64,000 bases of DNA, from the NCBI GenBank assembly GCA_963825055.1, contig CAWGSK010000030.1, positions 1 to 64,000 on the forward strand, given 5' to 3'. The first letter of the stretch is position 1; the number at the start of each line of letters is the position of its first letter. Positions 1,191-36,708 of the stretch are shown here, piece after piece. The notes beneath the pieces were generated by a model. That model was not told where the DNA came from, made no database searches, and saw only the letters and a program-made list of their open reading frames with translations. A program made the translations under genes and the position numbers. Source of the stretch: an uncultured Gemmatimonadales bacterium (GTDB taxonomy: Bacteria; Gemmatimonadota; Gemmatimonadetes; Gemmatimonadales; GWC2-71-9).

Positions 1191-1205
1191 GCGACAATCC
1201 CTCGG

Positions 1206-4045: not shown

Positions 4046-4117
4046 CGCCACTCTGCTGGAAACCCAGTTCAAGGATTTGCACGTTCCGGCAGGACCTCGG
4101 CAAAAGCCCGGGTCGCC

Positions 4118-4762: not shown

Positions 4763-4848
4763 GGGACCAATCTGGACCCGGAACGCAAAGGCCCCCGCCA
4801 CGCGAACATGCGGGCGGGGGCCGGAAACGGCAGGACCTTCCTCCGGGG

Positions 4849-5757: not shown

Positions 5758-5782
5758 GCCACCTCGCGTGACCACCGTATCG

Positions 5783-17700: not shown

Positions 17701-17835
17701 GCCAGCGCCCTGGTCGCGTACGACGCCCTGCACGGCCGCCGTAGTCACGCCCTGGGCATGGAGCGGCGTGACAAGCAGGGCAGCCAGGCCCAGTCCGGCG
17801 AGCATGCGGACAAACCGACGATGCCAGCGTTGCAT
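14701..17835 (-). CDS. TonB-dependent receptor (Oar-like) with N-terminal carboxypeptidase-regulatory-like domain
   Basis: Signal peptide PLHA-Q; LPLLGRNFTDLV, NNIQIDG, ISLEAVQEFQI..PYDVRQG..GGLVNAITKSGTN, SPRFGFNYD, C-terminal MQLGAKYTF; RBS GAGGAG before ATG 17835. Confidence 0.92.
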   Translation of the reverse strand: MQRWHRRFVRMLAGLGLAALLVTPLHAQGVTTAAVQGVVRDQGAGTPIENASVVITNNSTGQHFQTTTRNNGRYFFENVPVGGPYTIEARAIGFEPGRKTELQLALGQRYTADFALSQAVVQLDELTIAGTVDPLINSGRTGPGQTISDSAIQRLPLLGRNFTDLVVTSPQVTAPNTGGVSIGGQNNRFNNIQIDGAVNNDLFGLAASGVPGGQANSKPISLEAVQEFQILTAPYDVRQGSFAGGLVNAITKSGTNELHGSVFGYLQSQALVGRDTANLKIDDFNIKQYGGTIGGPIVRDQVHFFLSADLQERSTPFVGQDLGDPTTGFSEARADSVRTVLQNVYGFDPGSAAAPKLTNPDKNFFGKVTAQLGNNSQLEVSHNYVKASDDNLIRDSRRTGFRDGYQLSNSGYSFSSKTNSTRAKWTAMFANRFSNELLLGYSTVRDARELPNRVPLIFVAGDTAGSNIAAGSDKFSQANSLDQDILEITDNLTFGVGRHRVTVGTHNEFFKFNNVFFPASLGVWSFDSPTDLANGVATRYEIALPTAARPDGPVADFNVKQLGGYLQDQWQPTPQWTLTLGLRMDVPIMDKPVTNPALVTDLGINTGDFPSGNVLWSPRFGFNYDVRGTGETVVRGGIGVFSGRPPYVWMSNAFTNTGLEQESLVCTGAAVPTFTVDPDNQPTSCGAGGGPPVAATPTINYFDKDFKFQQNMKIALGVDHRLPWEMVGTLDFLYTKSLNQFYLQDVNIVETGRNAEGRMLYGTSNGSGGLSRATVTNNFRQVIEHSNKSRDFSTSITAQLQKRFSDNLEFSVGYTWSNTRDLMSLTSSIASSNLGFAALDGTQANRIRRRSVFDRPHKITASGTVTLPFDFRASLIYVGVSGSPFTYMVSGDANADGNFSNDIIYVPGGPGDITLSNPADYATLDAFINSQKCLRSQRGHVMARNSCRNPWSSVVNARFSKFVNTWNGQSIEVTADIFNLANLIDGDWGLQRLTSSFEGQTALRYTGYDAANGRGIYSLSLPNLDKVSINPSRWRMQLGAKYTF

Positions 17836-18019
17836 GAGGCTCTCCTCACCCCGGTAGGAAGCACGAAGCCCACAGCGCCGCCGAGGGGATCGGCAGTGGG
17901 ACGACACCGGAAGAACCGGTGGTACACTCATACCGTTTTCTTTCGATTGGTGCATCAGGCAATCAGGTTAGAACTCCGTGAAGCCACAGCCGGCCGGGCC
18001 GGCCATCGGAATCGGCCCG

Positions 18020-19490: not shown

Positions 19491-19666
19491 AGTTTGTTGC
19501 CTGACCCTGAACGAAGAGGGAAAGCGGCATTATCTTAGACGCCTGCCCGAACCGGGTCCGGCGTAAGGTGGCGCCGACACTATCCGTTGACAAGGTACGG
19601 CGGCGCGGGCCCCGCACTGCCACGGCCGGGGCATGTTGCCATTCGGACACCATGGAGCAAGACGTA

Positions 19667-21598: not shown

Positions 21599-23409
21599 AT
21601 GGCTGACGCGCCGGCCCGTTTCCGGGTTCCTCCCCCCACCGAGCTCGGCCGGCTCTGGCCCAGGGTGCGCCCGTACCGCTGGAGCCTGGCTCTCGCCGCG
21701 CTCGCCCTGGTCGTCAGCGCGGCGATCGGCCTGGCCTTCCCCCTTATCGTGGGCAAGCTGCTGGATGCGGCATTCCTCGACCGGGGCCGTGAGATTCTCG
21801 ACCGGATCGCCCTCGGCCTGGTCGGGCTCTTCGCCGTCCAGGCCCTGCTGAATTACGCCCAGACGTACCTGCTGAGTGCCACCGGCGAGCGGGCGGTCGC
21901 CGGACTCCGCCGCGAGTTGTTCGGGAAGCTGCTGGAGATGCCACCAGGCTTCTTCGCCGAGCGCCGGACCGGCGAACTCACCAGCAGGCTCACGACCGAC
22001 GTGGCGCAGCTCCAGGGCGTCATGAGCCACCAGATTGCCGAATTCAGCCGGCAGGCACTCTCGCTGGTGGGGGGGTAGTCCTCCTCTCCCTGCTCCAGCC
22101 GCGACTCACGTTCACGGCGCTTCTGGTCGTGCCCTTCGTGGTGTTCTCGGCCATCTTCTTCGGCCGTCGGCTCCGTTCCATCAGCACCGGGGTGCAGGAC
22201 CAGGTCGCCTCGGCTACCGCGATGGCGGACGAGGCGTTCAGCCAGATCCGGACGGTCCAGAGCTTCGTGCAGGAGCCCGCGGAGCGGCAGCGGTACGGAG
22301 ATCGTGTCGCGGCGATTGTCGAGCGAGCCCTCAAGCGGGCCCATGTCCGTGGCGTGTTCTTCGGCGTGATCACCTTCGCCACATTCGTGGGGGTCGTGAT
22401 CGTGCTCTGGCAGGGCGGACTGCTGGTGCTGGCCGGGAAGCTGACGGCAGGGACGCTGGTCGCGTTCCTCCTGTACACGATCTACATCGCGGCAGCCATC
22501 GGGTCGCTGGCGTCCTTCTTCAGTCAATACCAGGAATCGGTCGGGGCCGCGCGGCGGGTGTTCGAGATCCTCGAGGGCCCGGTTGCGATCGCCGACCCGG
22601 TGGAACCTGTGGCCCTGCCTTCGCCGGTGCGGGGCCGGGTCACATTCGAGCAGGTCTCGTTCACGTACCCTGGTGGCGTGGAGGCGCCCGGAATCATCCC
22701 GCCTCCCACCGTCCGGGATATAACCATTCGGGTCGAGGCGGGCGAGACCGTCGCCATCGTGGGCCCTTCGGGCGCCGGGAAGACGACACTGGTCTCCCTC
22801 CTCCCCCGGTTCTGGGACGTGACCGCCGGCCGGATCCTGCTGGACGGGGTCGACATCCGCCAGTTGCGCCTGGCCGACCTGCGCCGGGCTATCGGTCTGG
22901 TCCCCCAGGAACCGGCGCTCTTCAGCGGCACCATCGAAGAGAACGTCGCCTATGCCAGGCCGGACGCCTCGGCGGACGAGGTGGAGCAGGCCGCGCGGAT
23001 CGCGCATGCCCACGAGTTCATCGAGCGTTTCCCTGAGGGGTATGCGACCCTGGTGGGCGAGCGGGGTGTCAAGCTTTCCGGCGGCCAGCGGCAGCGGGTC
23101 GCCATCGCGCGGGCTGTGCTCAAGGACCCGGCCGTTCTCATACTGGACGAGGCCACGAGCAGCCTGGACAACGAGAGCGAGCGGCTGATCGAGGCCGCGC
23201 TGGAGAAGCTGCTCGTGGGAAGGACAACGTTCATCATCGCGCACCGGCTGAGCACGGTGCAGCGGGCCGACCGGCTGCTGGTCATGAACTACGGCCGGAT
23301 CGTGGAGGAGGGGACGCACGAGGAACTCCTGGCGCTGGGCGGGCTGTACGCCCGGCTCTACCAGAGGCAATTTCGGGAGGAGTTCCGCGAGACACCGCCC
23401 GGGCCCTGA
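21599..23409 (+). pseudogene. MsbA-like ABC exporter (TMD+NBD) interrupted by a 1-nt frameshift in a G7 run (pseudogene or sequencing error)
   Basis: ORF 21599-22078 (FFAERRTGELTSRL) and ORF ending 23409 (GPSGAGKTT, LSGGQRQR, DEATSSLD, IAHRLSTV) join into ~603 aa if one G is added at 22069-22075. Confidence 0.85.
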
Positions 23410-23466
23410 CTGCCGGGACGGGACCTTCGCCTCCGAGCCACCAGTGGGTCGACGTGCGGAGGAGCA

Positions 23467-23528
23467 AACCCTGCAACAGCAGTGCCCCCCGCCGCGACTG
23501 CGACGGGGGGCACTGTTGTTACAGGGTT
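23467..23528. terminator. Long hairpin / probable bidirectional terminator
   Basis: 29-bp arms with 3 mismatches, 4-nt loop (AACCCTGcAACAgCAGTGCCCCCCGcCGC-gact-...), between convergent genes. Confidence 0.7.
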
Positions 23529-23538
23529 ACCGACTGAC

Positions 23539-25170
23539 CTACTGTGCGTGCATGGTCAGTTTGATCACACCGGGGTTCGGGTCGAAGAGTATGACGGCCA
23601 GCAGGTAATCTCCGGGGGTCAGCGCAACCGTCGTAGTCTCCGGTTGGCCGTTGCCGTTGGCGCCCCCGGTGTGGCCGAAGGAGTCGGCACCGGAATCGAG
23701 AATGTTGTTGAATCCGGAGTCGATGACGTAGAGCCCGAGGTCTCCGTCACTGCTCCATTCGAGCGTCATGTCATACGTGGTGTTCGCCGGGACGGTGATC
23801 CGGTAGAACCGCGAGTCGTTTGCCGCGAACGTACCCCCACCGAACCCGCCACCGTCATAAGTCACGTTGGTATTGCCCGACGTCGGGAGCGGAAGGAACG
23901 AGGCGTTGAACGGGTCGTCCGTGTTCAGGAACGGAGAGGCGGCCGCGGTGATAAGCTGGGTCGCGTCGAGGGACAGTACGAATGGCCCAACGACGACGCC
24001 ATCAATGGTCGGACGGCCAACTGATCCCGGCGGCGCAACGAACGTGACCGTCGTGCTGTCCGTCGACACGTTCGTGATGTAGCTGTTGAGCCCCCCGAAC
24101 GACACATTGACGGAAGCCGGATCGAGCACGAAACCGGGGTCCGCCGTCATCGTGACCGTGGCGCCCGCGGCTGGGTTCGTGGCGGAGAAGGTTACCGGTG
24201 CATTCGGGACGACCGGAGACTTCACGCGCGTCGAGTCCGTGAGGTTGAACGCGAACAGGGGTGATCCGGTGGCAATGACACCGTTGATGGTGATGGGCGC
24301 GTCCGTGTTCGGCGGCACCAGCACGCTCAGCATTGTGCTGTCGGCGCTGATACCCACCAGAATCGCGGAACTGTCGGCCGCAAAGTTCACGGTGGCGGAC
24401 GGGAGGATCCGCAGCCCCGACGGCACCGTCAGGACGACCGTATCCGAGCTCGTCGGGGTGGTCGTGTTATAGGTGGCGCCGAGCTTTCCAAAGCCTTCGG
24501 TCGTGAGCGAGAGTGAGGTCGGCACCGAGAACTGCTGCCCGGGCAGGTAGCCAACTACCACGTCGTTCAGGGTCACGGGGCCGGAGACTCCGGGAGGCGG
24601 CACGAAGGTAATCTGCGTGCTGTCGGCCGACACCCCGATGAGAATCGGGCTTGCGACGCCACCCGCGAGCGTCACGGTCGACGTGGAGGTGAACGTTATG
24701 CCTGCCGGCAGGGTGATCGTGACCGTGTCCCCGTTGGTCGGCGTCGTCGCGGACAGGGCAGCCACGATCTTGGACGGGACAATATTCACGTCCACGGTGA
24801 CCGACTTGCCTGCCGCATCTACGTCAAACGAACCCGAGACAAACGTGGAGGAGTCCTGTCCCTTCACGAAGAACCGGGCACGGGTCTTGAGGTTGTCGCC
24901 GCCGATCACAAGGCCGTACCCGGTGTCCTGGTTCACGACGAGGCCGGCGGTCTTATTGCTGATGGTGAATTCGGCCTCGTTCTGGTTCCCGAGATCGTTC
25001 ACCGCTTCCACGACGACCGCTTCACTGTCCACGTTGCTCACGAAGACGATCTGCGGGGTCGCCTTGATGCTGGCGATGGTATCCAGGTTTGTGTCGAAGG
25101 CATTCCCTCCGCACGCCCAGATCCCGCCGGCCACGGCGACCAGGATCGAACCACGTACCAAACGGTTCAT
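23539..25170 (-). CDS. Surface lipoprotein with three tandem Ig/IPT-like repeats and C-terminal PPC-like domain
   Basis: Lipobox IWAC; repeats ..TTPTxxDTVxxTxPxG..(V/I)SADST..(F/V)xxPP x3; C-term FYRITVP..DLGLYV..E..LTPGDY; RBS GAGGTG. Confidence 0.75.
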   Translation of the reverse strand: MNRLVRGSILVAVAGGIWACGGNAFDTNLDTIASIKATPQIVFVSNVDSEAVVVEAVNDLGNQNEAEFTISNKTAGLVVNQDTGYGLVIGGDNLKTRARFFVKGQDSSTFVSGSFDVDAAGKSVTVDVNIVPSKIVAALSATTPTNGDTVTITLPAGITFTSTSTVTLAGGVASPILIGVSADSTQITFVPPPGVSGPVTLNDVVVGYLPGQQFSVPTSLSLTTEGFGKLGATYNTTTPTSSDTVVLTVPSGLRILPSATVNFAADSSAILVGISADSTMLSVLVPPNTDAPITINGVIATGSPLFAFNLTDSTRVKSPVVPNAPVTFSATNPAAGATVTMTADPGFVLDPASVNVSFGGLNSYITNVSTDSTTVTFVAPPGSVGRPTIDGVVVGPFVLSLDATQLITAAASPFLNTDDPFNASFLPLPTSGNTNVTYDGGGFGGGTFAANDSRFYRITVPANTTYDMTLEWSSDGDLGLYVIDSGFNNILDSGADSFGHTGGANGNGQPETTTVALTPGDYLLAVILFDPNPGVIKLTMHAQ

Positions 25171-25269
25171 ACTGTGCACCTCATTCCTGAGAGATGGTGA
25201 GTAGCTTCCGCGAATGTACACCCTGATCCGGCCCCACACCAGAACCGGAGGACCCACAGTGTCCGGATC

Positions 25270-26706
25270 TCAATTGCTCGGCGCGTAGCCGGTGTAGAAG
25301 TCGACACCCAGGAACTGTCCGATGTCCCGAACCGCGTCTTCCCCGAGCACATCCCGCCAGCTCGGCAGTCCGCGGTACTGGAGGTCGTTGGACTGGAGGA
25401 GCACGTAGTTGCCGAGCCCCGTCCGGTCCGCGAACACGAAGTACCTGTCCCGACCCCGCGTGTATCTCCAGACTTCGTACGTCGGGGCAACACCCGACCG
25501 GACCCGCTCCAGCGTCTCATCCGGCTTGCCGTAAACGGCCCAGATTTCCCCCCTGGGGGTTTTCCATCCCGGGCGGTTTGAGCGGCCGGGCTCGCCGAAC
25601 TTCTGGTTCGCGTAGGCGACGGTAGCGTAGAACTGCTCCCGCGCCTCGTTCCGCGAGGTCGAGGAATCAGGGTCGCGCTTCTTCCAGAACTGGGTGAGGA
25701 AGTTCCGCTTGGCCGCAGTAGACAGATCTCCGCTGTACGGCTTCAGCTCCCCACTCTGCGCGATAAACGTCAGTGGCTCCTCGTACACGTCGAGCGAATC
25801 CGCCTCCATGGTGGCGAAGAACCCTTCGTCCGTCACCCGCACGGCCGCGCGACGCTCCGCCTCCTGGGCCACTGCCTCCTGCAACCCCTGCATGCTGAAC
25901 CCGGCGGACCGCATCACGGTGTCTTCCGGCATCTCGAGGGTTACATCCAGGCGGTACTGCCCTCCCGGCAACCCTTCGAGGTCCACATCGCCGAGGAGGA
26001 TCCCTCCTCCCGCGGCCAGCTGGACCGGCCGCGGCGGCCGCTCCAGATACACCTTTCCGTCCGTGCCCAGCACTGAAACCTTCATCATTCCGGAGGCCGG
26101 CGTGTCACTGTAGGCCTCAAGGAAGTAATACAGGCTCGCGTGGAAGGGGGTCAGGCGAAGGTCGGCAATCGACGTGATCATCAACTGTCCTGCCCGCCAC
26201 TCGGAGCCTGAAGGCATCGAGTCCCCGGTCACGGCGCGGATCTGCGGCGACAGCAGCAGGTCCGATGCGAGCGGCTCGTCTGCATACCCCCGGATCTGCC
26301 GCACCGCCCGGCTGGTTCGGCCCGAGACCGAATCCTCCACCGTGACTTCCAGCTCGTACTGCCCGGGCAACACGTGGAACTCCATCATGTTGACCGTGAA
26401 CGCCCCGGGCTCGCGGAGGTCGGCCCGCACATGCTGCTGCGGCCAGGAGTCCTCGAGAAGCTTGAGCCCGCTGGAGTCCCGTACCACGAAGGCAATGCGG
26501 TAACTCATGATGCCGTCAGGCCCCATGACCGTCGGCTGCATCAGGTCCAGCGGGACCTGCACGAAGGCGCGAACCTTCGTCTGGTTGCCGTCCGCCCGGT
26601 AGAACCGTACCGCCCGCACCGCCACACCACTGTCGGCCTGCGCCGACACGGGGGCCGGCGCCAGGGCCAGGGCCGCTGCCAGCGCGGCGAGAGTCAATCC
26701 TGCCAT
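25270..26706 (-). CDS. GWxTD-domain protein with two N-terminal Ig-like domains
   Basis: Signal peptide PVSA-Q; PGQYELEVTVEDSVSG, GQYRLDV; FLTQFWKKRDP..NEAREQFY..YANQKF..PGWKTPRGEIWAVYGKPD..YEVWRY..FVFAD..GNY. Confidence 0.85.
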   Translation of the reverse strand: MAGLTLAALAAALALAPAPVSAQADSGVAVRAVRFYRADGNQTKVRAFVQVPLDLMQPTVMGPDGIMSYRIAFVVRDSSGLKLLEDSWPQQHVRADLREPGAFTVNMMEFHVLPGQYELEVTVEDSVSGRTSRAVRQIRGYADEPLASDLLLSPQIRAVTGDSMPSGSEWRAGQLMITSIADLRLTPFHASLYYFLEAYSDTPASGMMKVSVLGTDGKVYLERPPRPVQLAAGGGILLGDVDLEGLPGGQYRLDVTLEMPEDTVMRSAGFSMQGLQEAVAQEAERRAAVRVTDEGFFATMEADSLDVYEEPLTFIAQSGELKPYSGDLSTAAKRNFLTQFWKKRDPDSSTSRNEAREQFYATVAYANQKFGEPGRSNRPGWKTPRGEIWAVYGKPDETLERVRSGVAPTYEVWRYTRGRDRYFVFADRTGLGNYVLLQSNDLQYRGLPSWRDVLGEDAVRDIGQFLGVDFYTGYAPSN

Positions 26707-26770
26707 GCCACCTCTTGATGTGCCCGGACAGGAATCCTGCCCCGACCGGGCCGCATCCATGCTTCGAAAG

Positions 26771-27892
26771 TTACCAGCCGATATTGAAGCTGAAGAAGTT
26801 GGTCGAGCCGAGCACGCCCATGTACTTCCAGGCGTAGTCCACGCCCAGGCGGAAGTTGCCCGTCTGGTAGTTCAGCCCGCCGCCGAACGCCAGGCCCTGG
26901 AGGTTTTCCTCGTCCAGCAGCGCCGTCGACGACAGGCTGGCCGGCTCCAGGTTGTTCGCCGGGTTGTACGAGTAGCTCCCCCGCAGGGCGACCCCGAAGG
27001 CGCTGCCCCCCAGCTGGTCCAGCATCCACTCCGCCCCGGCCGAGAAGCCCGCCGAGTTGTTGTTCGGCTGGTTGAAGTCACTCAGCACCGTCAGCCGGTT
27101 CGACGCCCCCGTCAGGAGGTCGTACGCCAGCCCCACCCGGAACGTCGTTGGCAGCGGGAAGCCCTTCGTCCGCAGCCGCGCCGGCTGGTCCAGGCTCGGC
27201 ACCGGGTCCTCGCCCGGCAGCGGATCCCGCGCCGAGCCCGTGTTCAGCGCGTCCCCGCTGTAGCTCAGGTCCGTGCCCAGGTTCGCCAGCACGAACGAGA
27301 ACTTCACCGGGTGGTTGTTCAGCATCGCGTGGAAGTTCGTCCCGAAGTCCACCGCAAACGCCGACCCGTTCGCATCGCCCAGGTTGTCCGAGACGAACTT
27401 CGCCGTGATGCCCGCACTGAAGCGGTCCGAGAAGTTCTCCGCGTACGTCAGGCCCGCGAACGTCTCATTCACCGAGTACACCGACCCCGTGCCTTCCGGC
27501 TGGTCCACCGTGTACACCGGCTGGTCATTGAACCCGAACGTCCCCAGCTGGAGCCCGAACGTCCGGGCCCCGTTGCCGAACGGGAACGCAATCCCGCCCC
27601 ACGTGTACCGGGTCCCGGCCACGTAGTCATACGTCCCCAGCATCGCCCCCGGCCGCGCCATCAGCGCCGCGCCGGCGGGATTGTAGTACAGGGCACTCAC
27701 GTCGCTGGCGATCGCCGAATAGGCTCCGCCCAGCGCCGTGCCCCGCGCCCCGGCTCCCAGCAGCAGAAACTCCGCCGCCGTCGTGCCATAGGGCGTGTTG
27801 TCCTGGTTGACGTCCTGCGCCAGCCCCACGGCCGGCAGCCCGCTCAGCAGGGCGCCTACCACCAACCACCGCTTCAGGGAAAAGTCACGCAT
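26771..27892 (-). CDS. porV: PorV/PorQ-family (FadL-like) outer-membrane barrel
   Basis: Signal peptide VGLA-Q; GTTAAEFLLLGAGARGTALGGAYSAIASDVSALYYNPAG, AVDFGT, NLGTDL, LPTTFRVGLAY, DYA, terminal FSFNIGW. Confidence 0.85.
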   Translation of the reverse strand: MRDFSLKRWLVVGALLSGLPAVGLAQDVNQDNTPYGTTAAEFLLLGAGARGTALGGAYSAIASDVSALYYNPAGAALMARPGAMLGTYDYVAGTRYTWGGIAFPFGNGARTFGLQLGTFGFNDQPVYTVDQPEGTGSVYSVNETFAGLTYAENFSDRFSAGITAKFVSDNLGDANGSAFAVDFGTNFHAMLNNHPVKFSFVLANLGTDLSYSGDALNTGSARDPLPGEDPVPSLDQPARLRTKGFPLPTTFRVGLAYDLLTGASNRLTVLSDFNQPNNNSAGFSAGAEWMLDQLGGSAFGVALRGSYSYNPANNLEPASLSSTALLDEENLQGLAFGGGLNYQTGNFRLGVDYAWKYMGVLGSTNFFSFNIGW

Positions 27893-27964
27893 TGAATCTC
27901 ACCTCTCCTGGATGGGGAGGACGGGGCCACCACCGTGGCCGCCCCGCCCCCCTTGGTCCCTGGC

Positions 27965-30900
27965 CTACTGAGCGAAGTTGACGATCGTAAAGCGGCCCAC
28001 CCGCCGGGCGTTGCCACTCTCGATGTGGTAGAAGTACACCCCGCTGGCGACCACCTGGTTGTTGCGGTTCCGCACGTCCCAGGTCTCCGCCCCCCCGAAG
28101 GCCGCGGCGTGGTGCTCCAGCAGCCGCACCAGCACCCCGCTCGAGGAGTAGATCCGGATGATCGCATTGTCCGGCAGGTTCACGAACTTGATGATCTTCG
28201 TGTCCGTCGTCTGCTCGAACTCGTTCGTCACGTAGTACGGATCCGGCACCGTGTGGACCTGGCTCAGGTCCGCGTCCGTCGGCGCGTTGATCTGGTTCGT
28301 CACGTCATAACTCACCCGCAACGTCGCTCCCACCGCCGTCATGGGAAGGATGTCCTCGGGGTTGGAGTACGTATACGGACCTTCGTTACCGGCATCGCCG
28401 TTACCACCGGTGATGGCGCCGACATACTGCCGGAGTGACCAGACCGTCCCGGCAGCAGGCACCTGCCCGCCGGCGAGTTCAAAGGTGAACCAGTCTCCCG
28501 GCATCGCGAGAACGAAGCCCGCGTTGGTGGCTACCGGACTCGACGTCGCCGCCGAGAGGCTCGGACTGAAGAAGGAAACCGGTCCCGGGACCACCGTCTG
28601 GCTCAGGGTATACGTATCCGAGCCGGAGATGCTCGTGCCGAGCGAGCGCACCGGCTCGACACAACCCAGGTCCGTGGAGGTCAATTCCGTGCGACCATCG
28701 AAGCATCCCGTGGTCGCGGCGTCCGCCGCGTTCAGGACGCCCCAGGTACCGCCGATCGTCGGGCTGAACGGCACCACCACGTTGTGGGTCACGTCGATCA
28801 CCGAGTCGATCGCACCACCACTCCCCCAGTAGACGTTGTAGTCCGCCGCACGGTGCGCGCCGGCCTTGATGCCCTCGACCGGCCGGTACTCACCGCCACC
28901 CACCGACTGGTACGCCTGGGTATTCTGGATGGTGACCACACCGGACAGCTCGCCGGCATTGTTGAAGTTGGTGACGGTGTTGCCCGAGAAGTTGGGCTGG
29001 TTGCCCTCGATCGGGTCAACCTTGGTCTCGTTGTTCGCCGGCGAGGGGCCGTCGAACCACCGGGAGCCGTTGTAGGAGCACCCGCTGTTGGTGGTGAAGC
29101 CGGCACGTCCATTGACGCAGCCGCGGCCGTAGAGACTGGCGTAGTCCGGGCCGCTCAGCTTCATGCTGACCTTGCCCTGGAGCGTGTAGCCCTGCCCACC
29201 GCCATACCGGGCCGCGAGGGACGGGTTCACCGCCACCGCGCCGAACTGCGCGGAGCCGGACACGACACCGATCTCCTGGTTCATGGTGATCGGGATCGAG
29301 AACGTTGAGGTATCAGGCCCGGAAGCCGCCGTCCACCAGTACACGTGCGGGGAGCCGCCGTACGGCGAGCCCAGCGCGATGCTGTCGAGCGTGGCGGAGA
29401 AGCTGCCGGAGGTGCTCAGCACGCTGGCCACGAAGTCACCGAACCCGATGGTCCACGACTTCGCCGGCGGGAACGGCCCGGAGAACTGCCCCGTGGTCGG
29501 GTCGATGGTCGGGAGCGGCTGGGTCGGGTCGAGCACCACGCCACGGCCTTCGATGTTGGCGCTGGTGATCGTGCCGACGTTCTCATAGTTCGCCGCCGGC
29601 CGCCGCGGGGTCACCGGCTTGGTGTTGCGCGGCGACTCGAGATTCGACGGACCGGACTGGAACGAGTTGATGTCGAACGCCGTCACGGAATAGAAATACC
29701 GGAAGTTATTCCGTGGCGTCTGGTCCACGTACACGAACGGCACGCCGTTATCCGACAGCTGCGGATATACGGTGTTGTTGCCCGTCACCGCCGTGTCCGC
29801 GATCAGGACGATCGCCGTCCCGTCGGCCAGTGCCGTCCGCTCGCCCAGCTTCACCTGGACGATCTGTCCCACCAGCGGCACGTCATTGTGCGCCGTCCGG
29901 GGCACGCCCGGGGTGATGGGATCGTACGTCGTGGGGCAGTCGGTCGTGATGGCCAGTTCCGGCGCGCAGAGCGGCGTCGGGTTCACCTGGGCCGCGTAGT
30001 CCGAAATGACCGTGCCGCCGTAGTCGAACTGCGCGAGCAGGGTCAGCGAGTTCGGCGCGTCCACCCGGCCCCGGTAGACCCGGTAGCCTTCGACGTCGAA
30101 CTGGCGGTAGTTCGGGTCATACAGGGAATTCGTCGGATCCGAGGCCAGCTGGTAGTACGGGTCACCCGTGGTCTCGGAGACCGAGGGGCGCCACAGCACC
30201 GTCACCTGGTTGTCGCCCGGCACCAGGAAGAACTCTGGCGGTTCCGGGGCGAACGGGAGCAGGAACCCACCGTCGAACACGGCCTGCGCCACCCGCGCCT
30301 TGCCGAGCAGGGAGCCCGGGACCACGTCAAACTCTTCCTGCTCCAGGATCCCGTTACCACTGGTGTCCGTGGCGCTCAGGAAGCCGGTCAGCGAGTCGAT
30401 CGGGTTGACCCCGTTCGCCACGATGGCCGGGTCGGTCAGGCCCGCGATGATCGTCGGGTTGCCAGGCGGCACGTTACAGCTCGGGCCGGGGCAGGTGCCG
30501 GTCTGGACCGGGGCGGCGAAGATGTACGCCACCACTACCGAGCCGAACTCGCCCGGGCCCAGGGTCAGCGGGCCGGACGACTGATAGAAGCGCATGTCGA
30601 ACGGACCGCTGCCGCGAATGAAGCAGATCTTCGTATTGACCGGGTCGAAGTTACAGGCGTCGTCGCCGGCGGCCGTGTTGATGTTGCCGGAGACGTAGCG
30701 CCACAGCTGTGTCGTGTTCCCGGGATCGGAGAAGCCGCCGCCGTTCGTGGTGTTGCTGAACAGCGTCAGGCCCACTTCCTGGCCATTGATCTCCGGGCTC
30801 TTCAGGTATTTCACGCCGACGAAGCCGGCGCCGGAGAAGAAGGGCTTGGAGAAGATGGCCGGGTCGAAGGACCAGCCATCCACCCGGGAGAACGCGTTCT

Positions 30901-31846
30901 CGTAGGTATAGCCCAGGGAAAACGGCACGTTCACCGACGCGTAGTTGTTGCCGGCGCTGCCCACGTCCATGTCCGCCGAGAAGTTGGCGTACAGGTCCGT
31001 GATGGTGTAGCCCCCGCTCGGCAGGGTCACGCCGAAGGTGCTGTTGTTCCGCTGCTGGAACTCCTGGGCCTTCTGGATCAGGATGTCCCGCATCCCCGGC
31101 CGGACGGCGGCATAGTCCGCCGGATTCGCGGACGTAACGTTGTAGAACGTGTAGACGAAGTAGACGATGTCTTCATTGCCCGATGGGTAGTTCCAGCCCA
31201 TGCCACGCTGTTCCACCATGACACCCAGCGGGTGCGGCCGGCCGGCGATCAGGCCCGGGTTGCCGTCCCACGTGAGCCACCAGACGTCGCCCTGCGAGGC
31301 CGAGGTCCGGCCCTGCAGGAGCGGGTTGAAGATGTCGGCCGTCGCGTCGCCGCTCGGCACCCGGGCCGCCAGGGCCACCGGGTCGCTCGTGGCCGCGTCA
31401 CCGATGAAGGCCGCATCGGCCAGGTTGGTCGTGTTGTAGATCGGCGCGACTTCATCACCGTGGGTCGTGGTGCCCTTCGGGTCGAAGAGGAACGCGCCAG
31501 TCGTGTCGCCGGCCCACGGACCGCCGTTGGGGCCGATGATGCCGGCCACCTGCAGGCCGGAGTTGAAGACGTACTGGTCGGCCGTACCCTTCGGCCAGAA
31601 GCCGCCACCGATCGTGGACGAGTTGTTCGAGTCAACGCAGACCTCGCCGATGCTCGTCAGGCCGCAATAGACGCGGTTGATCGTGAGCGCCCCGAGAGCT
31701 CGGGCAAACAGGCGGAACCCGCGGGTGTTTTTGGCGCCCGGCTCCGGCGACGCGGACGCTACCTGGGGCAGCGCCGCGGCGAGGGCCAGGGCCAGCAGCC
31801 CCGCCAGCATCACGCCTCGCTTACGAAGTAGTGAGTGCATTGGCAT
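27965..31846 (-). CDS. Large secreted protein (1293 aa) with FN3-like module and T9SS/FlgD-like C-terminal sorting domain
   Basis: Signal peptide; PGDNQVTVLW..FDVEGYRVYR..YFYSVTAFD; C-term VHTVPDPY..IKFVNLP..IRIYSSSGVLVRLLEH..WDVRNRNNQVVASGVYFYHIES..GRFTIV. Confidence 0.82.
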   Translation of the reverse strand: MPMHSLLRKRGVMLAGLLALALAAALPQVASASPEPGAKNTRGFRLFARALGALTINRVYCGLTSIGEVCVDSNNSSTIGGGFWPKGTADQYVFNSGLQVAGIIGPNGGPWAGDTTGAFLFDPKGTTTHGDEVAPIYNTTNLADAAFIGDAATSDPVALAARVPSGDATADIFNPLLQGRTSASQGDVWWLTWDGNPGLIAGRPHPLGVMVEQRGMGWNYPSGNEDIVYFVYTFYNVTSANPADYAAVRPGMRDILIQKAQEFQQRNNSTFGVTLPSGGYTITDLYANFSADMDVGSAGNNYASVNVPFSLGYTYENAFSRVDGWSFDPAIFSKPFFSGAGFVGVKYLKSPEINGQEVGLTLFSNTTNGGGFSDPGNTTQLWRYVSGNINTAAGDDACNFDPVNTKICFIRGSGPFDMRFYQSSGPLTLGPGEFGSVVVAYIFAAPVQTGTCPGPSCNVPPGNPTIIAGLTDPAIVANGVNPIDSLTGFLSATDTSGNGILEQEEFDVVPGSLLGKARVAQAVFDGGFLLPFAPEPPEFFLVPGDNQVTVLWRPSVSETTGDPYYQLASDPTNSLYDPNYRQFDVEGYRVYRGRVDAPNSLTLLAQFDYGGTVISDYAAQVNPTPLCAPELAITTDCPTTYDPITPGVPRTAHNDVPLVGQIVQVKLGERTALADGTAIVLIADTAVTGNNTVYPQLSDNGVPFVYVDQTPRNNFRYFYSVTAFDINSFQSGPSNLESPRNTKPVTPRRPAANYENVGTITSANIEGRGVVLDPTQPLPTIDPTTGQFSGPFPPAKSWTIGFGDFVASVLSTSGSFSATLDSIALGSPYGGSPHVYWWTAASGPDTSTFSIPITMNQEIGVVSGSAQFGAVAVNPSLAARYGGGQGYTLQGKVSMKLSGPDYASLYGRGCVNGRAGFTTNSGCSYNGSRWFDGPSPANNETKVDPIEGNQPNFSGNTVTNFNNAGELSGVVTIQNTQAYQSVGGGEYRPVEGIKAGAHRAADYNVYWGSGGAIDSVIDVTHNVVVPFSPTIGGTWGVLNAADAATTGCFDGRTELTSTDLGCVEPVRSLGTSISGSDTYTLSQTVVPGPVSFFSPSLSAATSSPVATNAGFVLAMPGDWFTFELAGGQVPAAGTVWSLRQYVGAITGGNGDAGNEGPYTYSNPEDILPMTAVGATLRVSYDVTNQINAPTDADLSQVHTVPDPYYVTNEFEQTTDTKIIKFVNLPDNAIIRIYSSSGVLVRLLEHHAAAFGGAETWDVRNRNNQVVASGVYFYHIESGNARRVGRFTIVNFAQ

Positions 31847-31877
31847 CCTCTCTCGTGCTTAAACGTGTGGTTGGCCA

Positions 31878-31899
31878 GCCGGTCCGTTGCCGGACCGGC
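31878..31899. other. Intercistronic stem-loop
   Basis: GCCGGTCCG-ttgc-CGGACCGGC between TonB barrel and cargo gene, no U-tract. Confidence 0.5.
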
Positions 31900-31915
31900 C
31901 AGCCCCCCGTGAGTA

Positions 31916-34900
31916 CTAGAAGTTGACTTCGATGCCGAGGCGCAGCCGCCGCGGGGTACCGGTAAAGTTGTCCGTCCCGCGGCCGATGAAGTAGAGCGCG
32001 TCAGAGGCCGCCTTCTGCTCATCCAGGCTGAAGATGTGGTCACCGTCGCCGTAGCGCTGTTCCGCCCGGATCAGGTACACGCAGCTTGGCGAGGCAGGGG
32101 TACCGCCCGCGGTCTGCCACGAGCCGCAGCCCGAGGCCACCGCGCCACCGAAGCGAAGGTCGATGGAGCCGTCGCCACCGTAGACCGCGTTCTTGATGGC
32201 CTCCGAGGCGAACAGCGAGCTGTCCGACTTGAACTGCTGGACCTGCTCCACCTCGTTCACGATGTCGTTCGTGGTCGTGAAGACCTGGAGAACATTCCGG
32301 AAGTTGAGGATGTTGCGGGCGTCCAGGTAGGCGGTCAATTCGACGCCGCCGAGCCCGAAGCCCTTCGTGAAGCGCATGTCGAGCTGCTTGAATGCCGGCT
32401 CACGGGCGCCGAAGAAGTCACCCACGAAGTTCTGGTTGCAGACCTGCCCGCTGACGACGCCGCGGTTACCGAGGTCGTCACCCGGGCACTTCGTGTAGGC
32501 CTCACCGCTGGAATACCGGAAGAGCGCCGTGATACCGACGTTCCCCAGGATCGATCCCAGCGTGGTCCCCTGCTTGAAGTCGTCAGGAATCGTGAGGGCG
32601 AAGGAGCCGGTGAGGTTATGCGGACGGCTCGTCGCAGTCGGGAAAATGCCCTGCGGCGGCGGCTGGTTGCCACCCGAGACCTGGTTCACGATCCGGGAGC
32701 CGAAGTTGATGTAGGTGAACGGGTCGGACCCGGTGTTCTTCGCATCCTGGTACGTGTAGGCCAGGACGCCGTTGAAGAAGCGGCCGATCCGGCGGTCGAG
32801 CCGGACGTCGATACCGCGGGTGTTGCCGAAGTCCGCGGAGGTGAGCACCCGGATGTCCTGGTTCCGGCCGAAGAGCGGATCGAACTTCGAGATGAGCCGG
32901 CCGGCCGCGTTGGACAGGTTGTCCTTGTTGTACGCGGAGAGGTCGAGCACCATGTCGTCGCTGAACGCGTGACGGATGCCGAACTCGAAGGTGATCGTCT
33001 TGCCGAAGTCCAGGTCGGACCCGTAGACGTGGTTCGTGTTGGTGATGGCCAGGTCCGTGTTGATACCGGTCAGGACCACGCCGAAGTCCGGTACCTGCAC
33101 CTGGTGGGCGTAGGAGAGCCGGAAGTTCGTGCGGTCGGTCACCGGGAAGGAGACCTGGATGTGCGGGCTCACATAGTTGTGGCTCTGGTCCCGCACGAAG
33201 TTCGCTGTCGGGTCCGTCGGGTCGAAGCCCGGGGCCGACGAGATCCGCGGGAAGTCAGCCGGACGGCTCGCACGGGAATCGTAGTAGTCGTACCGCAGGC
33301 CGCCGACCAGGACCACGTCACCGAGGTCGAGACGATCCTCAAGGAAGAGGTCGTAGCGGATCGGCTTCTCGTGGAAGATGTCCGAGAAGGCCTGGCTGGT
33401 GAGGCTGTGTGAGTAGCTGGCAATGTCGTACCGGGTGAATTCGCCGCCGATCTTCACACGGTTGTACCGGTCGAGCTGCCAGTCCAGGTTGGCCTTGCCG
33501 ACCACGCGCTTTTCATTGTACAGCGACATCCGGCCGGTCGGACCGCCGCCCTCGGCGAAGCCCGTCAGGCCGTACGCATTGTTCCGGTATACGTCGATGA
33601 CGTTGTACTGGTCGCGATTTTCCAGGTCGAACGGCGAGCGACGCGACCCCGGCGTGTTCAGCCGGTAGTTGTTGATCAGCTCATCATTGATCGGGAAATT
33701 GTCGAAGTTGAACAGGAAGTCCATGCTGCCGAGAATGAACCCACCCCACGGATTGCGGGTGTCGATCTCGCTCTGCCGCGTGAGCGGCGCGAGGATCGTC
33801 TGGTCGGTCTGGTAGGACAGGGCGACGTCAAGCGCCAGCGCCCGCTCCGCCGACCGCGCCAGGTTCTGGGTCCAGCCCAGCGTGACGTTGTTGCTGCGGG
33901 ACCGGTTGCCGAACAGCGCCTGCGGATTGTACAGGTTGCCGTAGCTGAAGTTCCGGCCCTGGCTCTGGCTCCGCTGCCCGCTCAGGAAGATGCGGCTGCC
34001 CTGGCCGAACGTGTAGTTCATCTTGCCGGCCAGCTGGTAGACCGTCGAGGCACTGACCGGAATCCGGATGCCCTGGCAGTCCGCGCCGTAGTTGTTCTTG
34101 ATATCCGCGTTCGTGCTGTTGTCAAACGCGTCGCACTTGCCCGTGTAGATCGCGTAGTTCGACACGTCCACGAACGACGTGTCCGCATTCGGGCCGAAGT
34201 TGCTGGGCACCGCGACCGTGGTGTCGATCCCCGCCTCGACGAACAGCGGGTAGTTCTCGACGCCCTGGCCGCTTTCCGCCGACTGCTGCCCCTCGAGCAC
34301 GCCCGAGAGGAAGAAGGTCAGGTTCTCGCGGACGGGGCCGCTGACGCTGGCTCCGATGCGGTTGAAGCCCGGACCGGCCGTCTTGCCGAAGACCTCGTCC
34401 GTCTCGTAGCGCAGGTTGCCGGCAAAGCTCTGGCCGCCGTTGCGGGTTTCAATGTTGATGATACCCGACTGCGCGTTGCCAAACTCGGCCGATGATGCGC
34501 CCGTCGTGACCGACGCCTGCTCGAACCCGTTGGTGCCGACGGAAATACCGCCGGTACCGTTCGAGCCCACGAAGGCATTGCCACGGTAGCCCGGCGAGAC
34601 CGGCACGCCGTCAATGTACGTGGCCGCCTCGTCGGACCGGCCGCCCCGGATGTTGATGCGGCCACCGCTCGGGCTCGCCACGACACCTGGCTGCAGTGCC
34701 AGCACGTCGTTGATCCGGTCGGCCGGCAGCTTGGCGACGTAGTCACCGTCCAGCCGCTGCTTGGTCGAGACCTCGTCTCGAGGCACCAGCTGCTGCCGCG
34801 CGCCGACCACGACGACCGAGTCCACCTGGAACGGCGTCTGCTCGAGCGTGACGTCCGTGGTCAGCGTCTGGCCGGCGAGGACCTTGATGTCCCGCACCTC

Positions 34901-35182
34901 CGTACGCTTGTAACCCACGAACGCGGCCCGTACGGTCGCAGGACCGATCGGCACGTTGTTGAAGAAGTAGTAACCCTGGTTGTTGGTCAGAGTCGCGAAC
35001 GCGGTACCCACGATGGTGACCTGGGCATTCGCAATCGGTGCACCCGACTGATCGCGTACTCTGCCTTCGATCTTACCAGTCGCCTGCGCATAGAGCGATC
35101 CCGCTCCAAGCGCGAGGCCGACTGCCGCCAGCGCAAACCACCGCGCTGCGCGGGCGAAGGCCCCTACACAACTTTGTTTCAT
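31916..35182 (-). CDS. TonB-dependent receptor-like barrel with carboxypeptidase-regulatory-like domain
   Basis: Signal peptide SLYA-Q; TGKIEGRV, LQPGVV..IRGGRSDE..YIDG, SAEFGNAQSGIIN, GLRYDY, SPHIQVSFPVTD, KTITFEFG, terminal PRRLRLGIEVNF; RBS GGAGG before ATG 35182. Confidence 0.9.
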   Translation of the reverse strand: MKQSCVGAFARAARWFALAAVGLALGAGSLYAQATGKIEGRVRDQSGAPIANAQVTIVGTAFATLTNNQGYYFFNNVPIGPATVRAAFVGYKRTEVRDIKVLAGQTLTTDVTLEQTPFQVDSVVVVGARQQLVPRDEVSTKQRLDGDYVAKLPADRINDVLALQPGVVASPSGGRINIRGGRSDEAATYIDGVPVSPGYRGNAFVGSNGTGGISVGTNGFEQASVTTGASSAEFGNAQSGIINIETRNGGQSFAGNLRYETDEVFGKTAGPGFNRIGASVSGPVRENLTFFLSGVLEGQQSAESGQGVENYPLFVEAGIDTTVAVPSNFGPNADTSFVDVSNYAIYTGKCDAFDNSTNADIKNNYGADCQGIRIPVSASTVYQLAGKMNYTFGQGSRIFLSGQRSQSQGRNFSYGNLYNPQALFGNRSRSNNVTLGWTQNLARSAERALALDVALSYQTDQTILAPLTRQSEIDTRNPWGGFILGSMDFLFNFDNFPINDELINNYRLNTPGSRRSPFDLENRDQYNVIDVYRNNAYGLTGFAEGGGPTGRMSLYNEKRVVGKANLDWQLDRYNRVKIGGEFTRYDIASYSHSLTSQAFSDIFHEKPIRYDLFLEDRLDLGDVVLVGGLRYDYYDSRASRPADFPRISSAPGFDPTDPTANFVRDQSHNYVSPHIQVSFPVTDRTNFRLSYAHQVQVPDFGVVLTGINTDLAITNTNHVYGSDLDFGKTITFEFGIRHAFSDDMVLDLSAYNKDNLSNAAGRLISKFDPLFGRNQDIRVLTSADFGNTRGIDVRLDRRIGRFFNGVLAYTYQDAKNTGSDPFTYINFGSRIVNQVSGGNQPPPQGIFPTATSRPHNLTGSFALTIPDDFKQGTTLGSILGNVGITALFRYSSGEAYTKCPGDDLGNRGVVSGQVCNQNFVGDFFGAREPAFKQLDMRFTKGFGLGGVELTAYLDARNILNFRNVLQVFTTTNDIVNEVEQVQQFKSDSSLFASEAIKNAVYGGDGSIDLRFGGAVASGCGSWQTAGGTPASPSCVYLIRAEQRYGDGDHIFSLDEQKAASDALYFIGRGTDNFTGTPRRLRLGIEVNF

Positions 35183-35364
35183 GGAGTCCTCCAATGGCGT
35201 GATCACGAAGTACTGCCGAGCCATCAACAAACGCACGTCCCCCCGGCAGATTCCTGGGGACGATAGACCCTGATGCTGGACACGGACCTGCTAGTAAAGC
35301 GAGGGGTTGCAACTAGCTGACTTCTGAGATCTTGGACTCCGGTCGCGGCCCGACCGGAGCAGAC

Positions 35365-35393
35365 AATATGGGACGCCCCCTGTAGCATGTCAA
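35365..35393 (-). promoter_or_regulatory. Putative sigma70 promoter of the five-gene envelope cassette
   Basis: Minus strand TTGACA-N17-CATATT. Confidence 0.65.
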
Positions 35394-35462
35394 GAAAGCG
35401 TCACGACTTGCGACATTCGGTGCGAGCCGGTGTAACCCTGTGAAACATCGTGAGATGACCTC

Positions 35463-35533
35463 GAGGCGGTGAAGACGGTCAGGACGGTCAGGGCGGTCTG
35501 GGCGGTCTGGGCGGTCTTGTCCGTCCTGTCCGT
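35463..35533. repeat. Degenerate 9-bp tandem repeat with partly inverted end
   Basis: aagacggtc aggacggtc agggcggtc tgggcggtc tgggcggtc ttgtccgtc ctgtccgtc, immediately after M24 peptidase stop. Confidence 0.75.
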
Positions 35534-36708
35534 CATGCCACTATCAGATCCACCTGCGGCGCCTCCGGCGTCACCCGCGGACCGGAGAGACCCATATGGA
35601 CGTTGATCTCGCTCCGAACCCCGAAACGACCCTCAAGATACACCCCGGGCTCCACCGAAAAACCCACTCCCGGTAAAAGGACCCGCTCATCCCGGGTTTC
35701 GTAACTGTCCAGATGTGGCCCCGAGCCGTGAAGGTCACGATCGATGGAGTGTCCTGTCCGGTGGACAAATGCCTCACCGTAGCCGGCCCCTTCTATAATA
35801 GCCCGCGCTGCCCGGTCCAGCTCGAACCCCCTGACAGGCCGCCCGGCAGAAGCCGCCGACCGCGCCAGCTCGACCGCGGCATCCCGGGCATCACGTACCG
35901 TTTCCCAGACGGAAAGCACGTCCGCCGGCGGCTCGGCCCCGGCAAACCCCATCCAGGTCTGGTCGGCGAAGACCGTCCGCCGACTCCGGCCACCCCACAG
36001 GTCCAGCAACACCACATCCCCCGCCTGAAGCTCCGCGTCCTTCCCCTCCATCGGCTCATAGTGCGGATTGGCCGAGTTCGGCCCGAAACCCACAATCGGA
36101 AGGGTATCGAGGGCAAGCCCGCCCTCCTTCATGTCCGCAATCACCCGCCGCTGGAGTTCCACTTCCCGAAGACCCGATCCAGCCTGCCGAACTGCGTCCT
36201 GCACCGCCCGCCGGGCGACCCGGGCCAGTACCTCCGCCGCGAAAAGGTGGTCCTCCAGCTCCTCCGGGGTCCAGGCCGCGGCAAAACGGGTCACGAGGCT
36301 GGAGGACGGAACCACGGTGGCCCCGAGACGGGTCAGGAGCTGGATCACGCCATGGGGCACACGGTCCAGGTAGGGCACCGCATCCTCGGGCGAGACCTCC
36401 ATGGCGACCGTCCGGCCGGCGACCACCCCACGCAGCGCCTCATGCAACTCCTCCCAGCGGGCATACGGCACGACGCGCCCGGGAAAGTCCTTGAACGGCT
36501 GCAACTCGATCCGGTGCACGACGGCCACCGGGTCGCCCGCTTTCGGCAGGTAGACGAACAGCCGGCGTGTTCCCATGCCCAGGGGGCCAAGCATCCTCGG
36601 CGTGACCGGGTTCACCCCATGGAAATCGTAGAGGAGCCAGCCATCGGCTCCCAGTTCATTCAGGGTCTCGGCCAGAAGGCCTCGATCCAGCCCCGCCAGG
36701 TCGGTCAT
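35533..36708 (-). CDS. M24-family (Xaa-Pro) metallopeptidase
   Basis: NSANPHY, LLDLWG, FADQTW, FVHRTGHSI, FSVEPGVY, GVRSE. Confidence 0.92.
   Translation of the reverse strand: MTDLAGLDRGLLAETLNELGADGWLLYDFHGVNPVTPRMLGPLGMGTRRLFVYLPKAGDPVAVVHRIELQPFKDFPGRVVPYARWEELHEALRGVVAGRTVAMEVSPEDAVPYLDRVPHGVIQLLTRLGATVVPSSSLVTRFAAAWTPEELEDHLFAAEVLARVARRAVQDAVRQAGSGLREVELQRRVIADMKEGGLALDTLPIVGFGPNSANPHYEPMEGKDAELQAGDVVLLDLWGGRSRRTVFADQTWMGFAGAEPPADVLSVWETVRDARDAAVELARSAASAGRPVRGFELDRAARAIIEGAGYGEAFVHRTGHSIDRDLHGSGPHLDSYETRDERVLLPGVGFSVEPGVYLEGRFGVRSEINVHMGLSGPRVTPEAPQVDLIVA

Follow-up and report, generated by a model that had tools for sequence, protein, structure and literature searches.

What would a bacterium outside the Bacteroidota do with a TonB-dependent-type barrel, a secreted protein that ends in a C-terminal domain (CTD) like those used by type IX secretion systems (T9SS), and a PorV-family barrel, when the three are encoded side by side? 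This question is raised by a five-gene cassette in a stretch of 64 kb, the first part of contig C30 in a Gemmatimonadales genome bin of 3.53 Mb and 35 contigs (completeness 87%, contamination 6%); the whole of that stretch is referred to here as the window. The five open reading frames (ORFs) lie head to tail on the minus strand (23539-35236), have a high third-position GC and are separated by gaps of 69, 72, 10 and 12 nt. They encode, in the order of transcription, the TonB-dependent-type barrel (the transporter), the secreted protein with the CTD (the cargo), the PorV/PorQ-family barrel, a GWxTD protein and a putative lipoprotein (Table 1). A preliminary description of this DNA had proposed a minus-strand cassette of these families in a non-Bacteroidota host; all the ORFs are present, their family matches were confirmed, and the relatives of the proteins carry Gemmatimonadales names. 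The reading that we favour, with a probability of roughly 0.55, is that the operon is a TonB-dependent uptake unit resembling a polysaccharide utilization locus, in which a partner exported through the SprA translocon is tethered by its uncleaved CTD to a barrel of its own.

The conserved unit within the cassette consists of the transporter, the cargo and the PorV-like barrel, and its distribution can be followed in three sets of loci. These include 40 loci fetched from 40 places after a cargo search of a panel of 151 Gemmatimonadota genomes (of which 145 have a completeness of 90% or more), 66 loci from named Gemmatimonadales metagenome-assembled genomes (MAGs), which were scored by a strict adjacency script, and 20 PorV loci from Glassbacteria-type genomes, ten of which had neighbours that were unknown when they were picked. 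In the panel set, the three genes are direct neighbours, in that order, in 37 of 40 loci, the exceptions being a PorV gene cut at a contig start, a contig that ends after the cargo gene, and one lone cargo. The GWxTD gene follows in 33 of these 40 loci and a lipoprotein homolog in 21. Among the MAG loci with room for the respective neighbour, the transporter is adjacent in 45/54, PorV in 44/50, the GWxTD gene in 41/44 and the lipoprotein gene in 36/38; three of the nine loci that miss the transporter hold a fragmented cargo gene with a transporter nearby, and the others are lone or tandem copies of the cargo gene. PorV-family genes score over the cut-off in 116 of the 151 panel genomes. Most genomes of family f10 have at least 13 matches, and two other families also have many; the named relatives of one f10 cargo belong to Candidatus Glassbacteria. 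At the Glassbacteria-type loci, a CTD-type protein is encoded just upstream of PorV in all 20 cases (mostly 930-1126 aa, one split into 661 and 446 aa) and is itself preceded by a CarboxypepD_reg/Plug-type barrel in 19, the twentieth locus being cut by the contig end. In the panel set, four loci of the Glassbacteria type hold the trio alone, at 25-40% identity, and one of the four is flanked by housekeeping genes. Of five loci sampled in two further families, four have the trio as well, with cargoes of 1340-1430 aa. With a Glassbacteria-type cargo as the query, 40 matches were obtained, the few named ones of which are Glassbacteria, plus one with an 'archaeon' label. Judged by these gene orders, the cassette of the window is one member of a multiplied and diversified class composed of a transporter, a CTD protein and a PorV-like barrel.

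Some variants of the arrangement were recorded along with these counts. In a genome of family f9 (G105, L070:15231-17186), genes for ExbB, ExbD and TonB lie directly upstream of the transporter gene on the same strand, in a string of seven genes. At three loci of family f7 (L159-L161), the PorV-like gene is followed by genes for a small barrel of the OMP_b-brl kind (244-258 aa) and for a conserved protein of 587-590 aa without a family match, a pair that replaces the GWxTD protein and the lipoprotein. Clusters of look-alikes in the ESM Atlas are labelled Ignavibacteriota (0.99) and Fidelibacterota (0.91), which is an unconfirmed lead.

The transporter is composed of a signal peptide, a CarboxypepD_reg domain (PF13620, 72.7 bits; PF13715, 52.9 bits), a TonB-box-like strand, a Plug domain and a large barrel with a C-terminal Phe. 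The Plug domain, by which TonB-dependent transporters are recognized, scores 37.6 bits against a cut-off of 23.9, and relatives of the protein match OMP_b-brl_4 in the barrel part. A motif of the type 'ExITVV...LVPRD', which we take to be the TonB box, follows the N-terminal domain and is kept in 45 aligned relatives, as is the C-terminal F. From its Plug domain, TonB-box-like strand and terminal Phe, the transporter looks import-competent, and the genome encodes TonB_C proteins as well as ExbB/ExbD-like genes. It lies outside the SusC/RagA family, with a TIGR04056 score of 41.3 bits against a cut-off of 368.25, confined to the N-terminal part.

The cargo belongs to a family of its own, with 1406 homologs, the best 120 of which are 56-100% identical to it over the full length. 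No Pfam match, SusD_RagB and SusD-like domains included, was obtained for the body of this 1293-aa protein. In an AlphaFold2 (AF2) model of residues 33-1215 (predicted local distance difference test score, pLDDT, 89.5; predicted template modelling score, pTM, 0.75), a beta-supersandwich (residues ~48-530) is followed by an FN3 domain with an insert (~531-750) and further beta-rich domains, after which comes the CTD (~1200-1293). The supersandwich (model residues 16-498) resembles the N-terminal domains of 9ju0, 1lf6 and 1ulv, with VIA Z scores of 18.9, 18.5 and 18.4 and root-mean-square deviations of 3.2 (251 residues aligned), 2.8 (231) and 2.9 (233), respectively. These templates, none of them catalytic, are N-terminal domains from a dextran dextrinase, a glucoamylase of glycoside hydrolase (GH) family 15 and a glucodextranase; GH94 phosphorylases are also among the structural matches, which span Z 15-19 as a set, and the FN3 domain has a structural match of Z 12.0. 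No catalytic domain is seen in the modelled residues, and Foldseek returned only weak matches for the cargo (TM 0.12-0.16). The predicted fold of the cargo is of the type found in carbohydrate enzymes, and of a binding kind. At its C-terminus, the Por_Secre_tail model TIGR04183 scores 19.4 bits by hmmscan (cut-off 23) and 26.1 bits in the genome search, and CHU_C scores 21 bits, under its cut-off of 27. The best family match of this CTD is the CTD end of PorZ (E 2.2e-7); a comparison of the CTD profile with solved chains gave no sequence match at an E of 0.01 or better.

The barrel encoded after the cargo scores 147.6 bits with NF033709 (cut-off 90) over positions 1-324 of the 326 in the model, which places it in the PorV/PorQ family, and stays below the equivalog cut-offs both of PorV (NF033710, 50.9 bits against 250) and of PorQ (NF033711, 68.3 bits against 220). 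Its profile matches the PorV of F. johnsoniae (6h3i_F) at E 6.2e-13. A complex between the mature 373-aa barrel and the last 130 residues of the cargo was predicted from alignments compiled in this analysis, and reached an interface score (ipSAE) of 0.90, the median of three runs, against 0.00 for the best of three controls; of 157 solved complexes, 116 attain the mark applied to this score, as do 2 of 215 mismatched pairs. Contacts agree between the runs to 86% or more, and the partner has a pLDDT of at least 74. Across 36 loci, the distances between CTDs and those between PorV proteins correlate beyond the contribution of the transporter (partial r 0.58, permutation p 0.001), which is weak evidence of coupling because the sequences are kin.

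A further view of the anchor comes from another cassette in the same genome (C18:42370-52343), which has unrelated flanks and no lipoprotein gene and lies just downstream of a response-regulator gene. The proteins of the two cassettes are 73% (transporter), 87% (cargo), 56% (GWxTD) and 100% (PorV) identical. The genes for the CTD and the barrel form a constant block that takes in ~128 codons at the 3' end of the cargo gene, with the CTD, the entire PorV gene and the spacer between them; only 3 of 1581 nt differ between the copies (27311, 27149 and 26783), all within the PorV gene and all silent, as the two PorV proteins are identical. The edges of the block are sharp, at 28351 and just past the PorV stop codon, and are flanked by sequence of 45-80% identity. 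These edges are where contigs break in the public run covering most of this DNA and in runs from other habitats, and a contig from marine sediment spans just the constant block at ~96% identity. A pure assembly artefact was considered as the origin of the block and rejected, given the three silent differences, the coincidence of the edges with gene features and the same breaks in other runs. The block looks like the product of gene conversion, or of an exchange in which a constant anchor module is swapped next to a body that varies; mixing of strains in the bin, with its contamination of 6%, may also be its source. A constant CTD and barrel beside a variable cargo body suggests a fixed anchor with an exchangeable binding part.

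From the perspective of secretion, the translocon of the T9SS is recovered along with the PorV-family barrel. The SprA homolog scores 505.2 bits with TIGR04189 (cut-off 200) and 57.1 bits with SprA_N, and is encoded 11.6 kb from the cassette; in 23 relatives, the two lie 12-22 kb apart on the same contig. SprA is over the cut-off in 120 of the 151 panel genomes. Within the family of the window, it is present in 41/41 genomes with a full-length cargo, and a cargo is present in 0/13 genomes that lack SprA. The motor and ring components were searched for with hidden Markov models (HMMs) that had no positive control: no match to GldL (TIGR03513), GldM (TIGR03517) or GldN was obtained in this genome (87% complete), GldK gave only 29-bit matches of the FGE (sulfatase-maturase) type on contig C15, against a cut-off of 350, and GldL and GldM were each over the cut-off in 0 of the 151 panel genomes. 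GldM_1st (PF12081) was found in 0 of 5 genomes. The sortase PorU (NF033707) had no match in the genome and was over the cut-off in none of the 133 sampled genomes of its class; the 18 panel genomes with PorU all belong to the Glassbacteria-type families f10-f12. A genome-wide census with TIGR04183 gave six matches, namely the five genes of the cargo family and one ORF of 151 aa, and SprA, judged from this census, seems to serve essentially one protein family in this genome.

The 151-aa ORF (C12:506923-507387, minus strand, between selB and clpB) encodes a secreted protein with little beyond a domain of the T9SS-CTD/FlgD-Ig type (TIGR04183, 21.4 bits), and similar ORFs that hold just a CTD, 144-250 aa long, turn up at weak scores when other Gemmatimonadota genomes are searched for PorU.

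In the literature, the TIGRFAM models of GldK, GldL, GldM and GldN used here are among the 13 T9SS profiles of Abby et al., who found the system in 60 of 97 Bacteroidetes genomes and, in the available portion of that source, report it from no other clade (PMC4793230). In the portions available of two later publications, a T9SS 'may also be present' in Gemmatimonadetes (2024; PMC11285876), and SprA is called specific to the FCB (Fibrobacteres-Chlorobi-Bacteroidetes) group (2025; PMC12611786). No description of a Gemmatimonadota module made of transporter, CTD cargo and PorV was found at the level of titles and abstracts. Much of what the preliminary description had anticipated is borne out by these results: SprA at about 12 kb; a reduced T9SS, in which SprA and the PorV family are present and GldL, GldM, GldN and PorU are not found, with GldK at 29 bits only; the absence from the window of porK, porL, porM, porN, porU and susD-like genes, none of which was placed on its contig by searches of the whole genome; and the pairing with a TonB barrel. 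It had let its proposal depend on three points, on each of which the outcome was favourable, since no complete T9SS was found elsewhere in the genome, the synteny is conserved and a contact between CTD and PorV is predicted.

In Porphyromonas, PorQ retains PorZ and PorV retains PorU. In the uptake unit that we propose, the cargo would leave the cytoplasm by Sec export to the periplasm, pass through SprA and have its CTD handed over to the PorV-like barrel, where it would be retained uncleaved, in the manner of those pairs, because no PorU-type sortase is present. The tethered cargo would then bind a polymer, probably a glycan, and feed the adjoining transporter, with TonB-ExbBD energising the uptake. 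The components of this scheme recall several known systems, although each of them presents distinctive features. The attachment complex of P. gingivalis provides the case of a T9SS-exported protein that retains its CTD and is anchored on the cell surface by a 14-strand barrel of the PorV/PorQ family. The cassette shares with PorZ-PorQ and PorU-PorV a barrel of that family, a predicted contact between CTD and barrel, and a CTD whose best match is that of PorZ. It differs in that the cargo is neither a sortase nor a lipopolysaccharide-delivery factor, belonging instead to a family of ~1300 aa with a body that has no Pfam match, in that the pair is encoded with a TonB-dependent transporter, and in that PorU and GldK, GldL, GldM and GldN were not found. 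With SusC/SusD (RagA/RagB) it has in common a CarboxypepD_reg-like TonB-dependent barrel followed by the gene for a surface partner, the multiplication and diversification of the pairs in some genomes, and a partner with a binding fold of the carbohydrate-enzyme type. In contrast to that system, the barrel is not of the SusC family, and the partner is neither a SusD nor a lipoprotein, being anchored, as predicted, through its CTD on the barrel encoded by a third gene. Finally, the canonical T9SS of Bacteroidota also has SprA and a PorV-family barrel, and its type-A CTD is resembled, at a borderline score, by that of the cargo, whereas motor, ring and sortase were not found here, the cargoes form one family instead of numbering tens to hundreds, and PorV is encoded in the cargo operon.

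Several observations weigh against the uptake unit, and have to be set beside the evidence given above. The cassette contains no catalytic enzyme and no regulator, unlike typical polysaccharide utilization loci. Structural comparison of residues 750-1200 of the cargo gave no match, and proteins without sugar binding, such as YidC with its P1 domain (Z 11.8), share the supersandwich fold. The score of the complex between CTD and barrel may stem from a resemblance to SprA-PorV structures already solved (among them 6h3i and 8gl6), and the absence of GldL, GldM and GldN leans on HMMs without a positive control, in a bin with the completeness and contamination already given. Of the five cargo-family genes in the genome, the three outside the cassettes (two on C12 and one on C6) have neither a transporter nor a PorV neighbour, and hence the cargo presumably works, or decays, without them. 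Moreover, a canonical SusC-SusD locus of the starch type, with two alpha-amylase-like genes, is present at C11:120791-128969; its SusC scores 638 bits with TIGR04056, and its SusD, the only SusD-family match in the genome, scores 372 bits with the SusD model (cut-off 725) and is over the cut-off of Pfam SusD_RagB. A second kind of partner is therefore not forced by a missing pathway. The claim that the cargo replaces SusD holds only in part and is weakened by this SusC-SusD-amylase locus. Likewise, a PorV for each cargo is what the two cassettes have, and is at odds with a genome in which five cargo genes stand against two over-cut-off PorV-family genes, whose proteins are identical, and three of the cargo genes stand alone.

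The lone paralogs were seen as tblastn matches broken over several frames, with two TGA codons inside one match, and may be decaying copies. The C6 region resembles a variant copy of the C12 region, with the same downstream gene lengths. A weak third barrel of the PorV/PorQ type lies at C34:168402-169556 (NF033709, 36.5 bits; PorQ, 30.9 bits; both under the cut-off).

Alternatively, the cassette could serve surface display only, with an adhesin- or coat-type cargo that is exported by SprA and held by the barrel, and a transporter that takes no ligand and is a neighbour for reasons of assembly or regulation. The lack of an enzyme or regulator and the lone cargo paralogs would both fit this explanation, as would the make-up of the cargo, since beta-sandwich and FN3 modules are frequent in adhesins. 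We nonetheless consider it unlikely, in view of a transporter that is the most constant neighbour even at 25% cargo identity and that diversifies together with the cargo in genomes with at least 13 trios, and of the lineage that adds ExbB-ExbD-TonB to the gene string.

Decidedly unlikely is a transporter that works outward, either by exporting or releasing the cargo or by passing the energy of TonB-ExbBD to a T9SS that lacks GldLM. The model for this idea is Oar, a TonB-dependent transporter which, in the available portion of the source, is needed for the secretion of PopC in Myxococcus xanthus (PMC6434023). The transporter of the cassette resembles Oar in the class of barrel architecture (CarboxypepD_reg, Plug and large barrel, in that order) and the two share the idea of a TonB-dependent barrel that serves a secreted protein; the finding of GldL and GldM in none of the panel genomes and the one cassette with ExbB-ExbD-TonB directly upstream can be read in the same direction. 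PopC, however, has no CTD, and neither SprA nor PorV is involved in its case, whereas the cargo has a T9SS-type CTD and a translocon at hand in every genome of the window's family with a full-length cargo. In addition, a folded protein of 1293 aa would be too big for a 22-strand barrel unless unfolded, and nothing was found here that links the transporter to SprA. For the earlier suggestion that the TonB barrel could energise export, the Oar/PopC precedent is all that could be adduced.

A similarly low probability is assigned to a PorV that acts as a shuttle, as in Bacteroidota, from which the cargo goes into the medium or to a different anchor, the PorV of each operon being a device for dosage or specificity. 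The family does include the true PorV, whose equivalog model gives the barrel some score, and the Glassbacteria-type genomes with many trios have PorU. Retention on the barrel, which is what the proposed uptake unit calls for, agrees better with a PorQ score above that of PorV, with a CTD whose best match is the retained CTD of PorZ, and with the lack of an over-cut-off PorU in the genome and in the sampled genomes of its class. Very improbable, lastly, is an ordinary T9SS cargo, with canonical GldKLMN and PorU encoded where the assembly is missing, or diverged beyond the reach of the models: incomplete assembly, Gld models without positive control and the failure of even PorU-bearing genomes to match GldL or GldM would allow for it, and against it stand the absence of GldL and GldM from a panel of which 145 genomes are at least 90% complete, the success of the same profiles in Bacteroidetes, and a single CTD-bearing cargo family in the genome.

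Type IX secretion has been studied almost wholly in Bacteroidota, where the GldLM motor, the GldKN ring and the PorU sortase are held to be core components. This lineage appears to have kept just SprA and PorV-type barrels and to employ them for one protein family, and the minimum requirements of SprA become directly testable in it. Each genome of the Glassbacteria-type relatives has the arrangement more than 12 times, and it is widespread among Gemmatimonadales, which are found in soil and sediment metagenomes and whose nutrient uptake is hardly known; it suggests that TonB-dependent transporters can be supplied with a surface partner in a manner so far undescribed. A wider proposal, which is tentative and in our judgement rather doubtful, would be that Gemmatimonadota run a minimal type IX pathway of SprA and one PorV-like barrel per operon, devoid of GldKLMN and, in this class, of a sortase as well, whose main or only job is to mount partners beside TonB-dependent transporters; these would thereby have a third source of surface partners, after the SusD lipoproteins and those of the Slam/TbpB type; TonB-ExbBD would then be the sole known proton-driven transducer left for the outer membrane.

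The two remaining proteins of the cassette are less constant. The GWxTD protein scores 78.9 bits with TIGR04514 (cut-off 28) and 48.6 bits with PF20094 (cut-off 26.9), which assigns it to this family, and consists of a signal peptide, two Ig-like sandwiches and a C-terminal alpha/beta GWxTD domain (residues 293-484). In its AF2 model (pLDDT 88.3), residues 44-293 match Ig/FN3-like sandwiches (Z 11-12). No mention of the GWxTD domain family was found in the literature searched. The 572-aa ORF product encoded next in the cassette is probably a lipoprotein, with a likely start at the inner ATG at 25170 (MNRLV...GIWAC, with a Cys lipobox), Ig/TIG-like repeats (TIG 20.2 bits, slightly under the cut-off) and a C-terminal PPC domain (28.7 bits). 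We infer that both are accessory parts specific to certain lineages, located at the surface or in the periplasm. A GWxTD-type gene also stands outside the trio, alone beside polA (C20:36531-37928), and an 825-aa tetratricopeptide repeat (TPR) protein with weak GWxTD similarity is encoded right after another Oar-like barrel (C7:81484-86795); with such genes outside the trio, GWxTD proteins are not tied to PorV or the cargo.

Regarding expression, a single promoter and a terminal hairpin had been proposed for the cassette. The sigma-70-like site is indeed present, as the sole promoter-like site in 23200-35700 and at the expected position, 5' intergenic to the transporter gene, and yet the motif is not above chance in this interval (one site against 1.4 +/- 1.0 in shuffles). 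The hairpin has a stability of -59.8 kcal/mol (z -9.45; 0 of 200 shuffles as stable), in agreement with the proposal, and no T-run lies 3' of it.

Table 1. Coordinates of the cassette, its signals and related features; positions without a contig name refer to the window.
Feature	Position	Strand	Matches or remarks
TonB-dependent-type barrel (transporter), 1106 aa	31916..35236	-	CarboxypepD_reg, Plug
Cargo, secreted, 1293 aa	27965..31846	-	Sec signal peptide, T9SS type-A-like CTD
PorV/PorQ-family barrel, 373 aa	26771..27892	-	NF033709
GWxTD protein, 496 aa	25270..26760	-	TIGR04514
Putative Ig/TIG + PPC lipoprotein, 572 aa	23539..25257	-	PPC, lipobox
SprA/Sov homolog, 2042 aa	5783..11911	-	TIGR04189
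Constant block (cargo end + spacer + PorV gene)	26770..28350	-	Near-identity to C18 cassette
Sigma-70-like site TTGACA-N17-CATATT	35365..35393	-	10/12 consensus matches
Long perfect hairpin	23465..23531	-	Just 3' of last stop codon
Lone cargo paralogs, two in tandem	C12:366132-373786
Lone cargo paralog, one	C6:12958-16669

Other genes of the window were noted in passing. A second large barrel with CarboxypepD_reg and OMP_b-brl_4 matches (14701-17955, minus strand, 1084 aa), Oar-like and without a Plug match, is encoded by a solitary gene between lptG and the gene for an amino-acid permease. Directly downstream of sprA (3-5775, minus strand) lie genes for an M28 peptidase, after a gap of 8 nt, comEA and the type IV pilus genes pilB, pilT and pilC. 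Beside the cassette, on the plus strand, an MsbA-like ATP-binding cassette (ABC) exporter is split into two ORFs, 21599-22078 (159 aa) and 22129-23409 (426 aa), which cover positions 6-149 and 168-576 of the model; the split stems from a frameshift, from an error in sequencing or from a gene that is broken. A fusion of CtaA (COX15) and CtaB (heme o synthase) of 666 aa is encoded at 19568-21568 on the plus strand.

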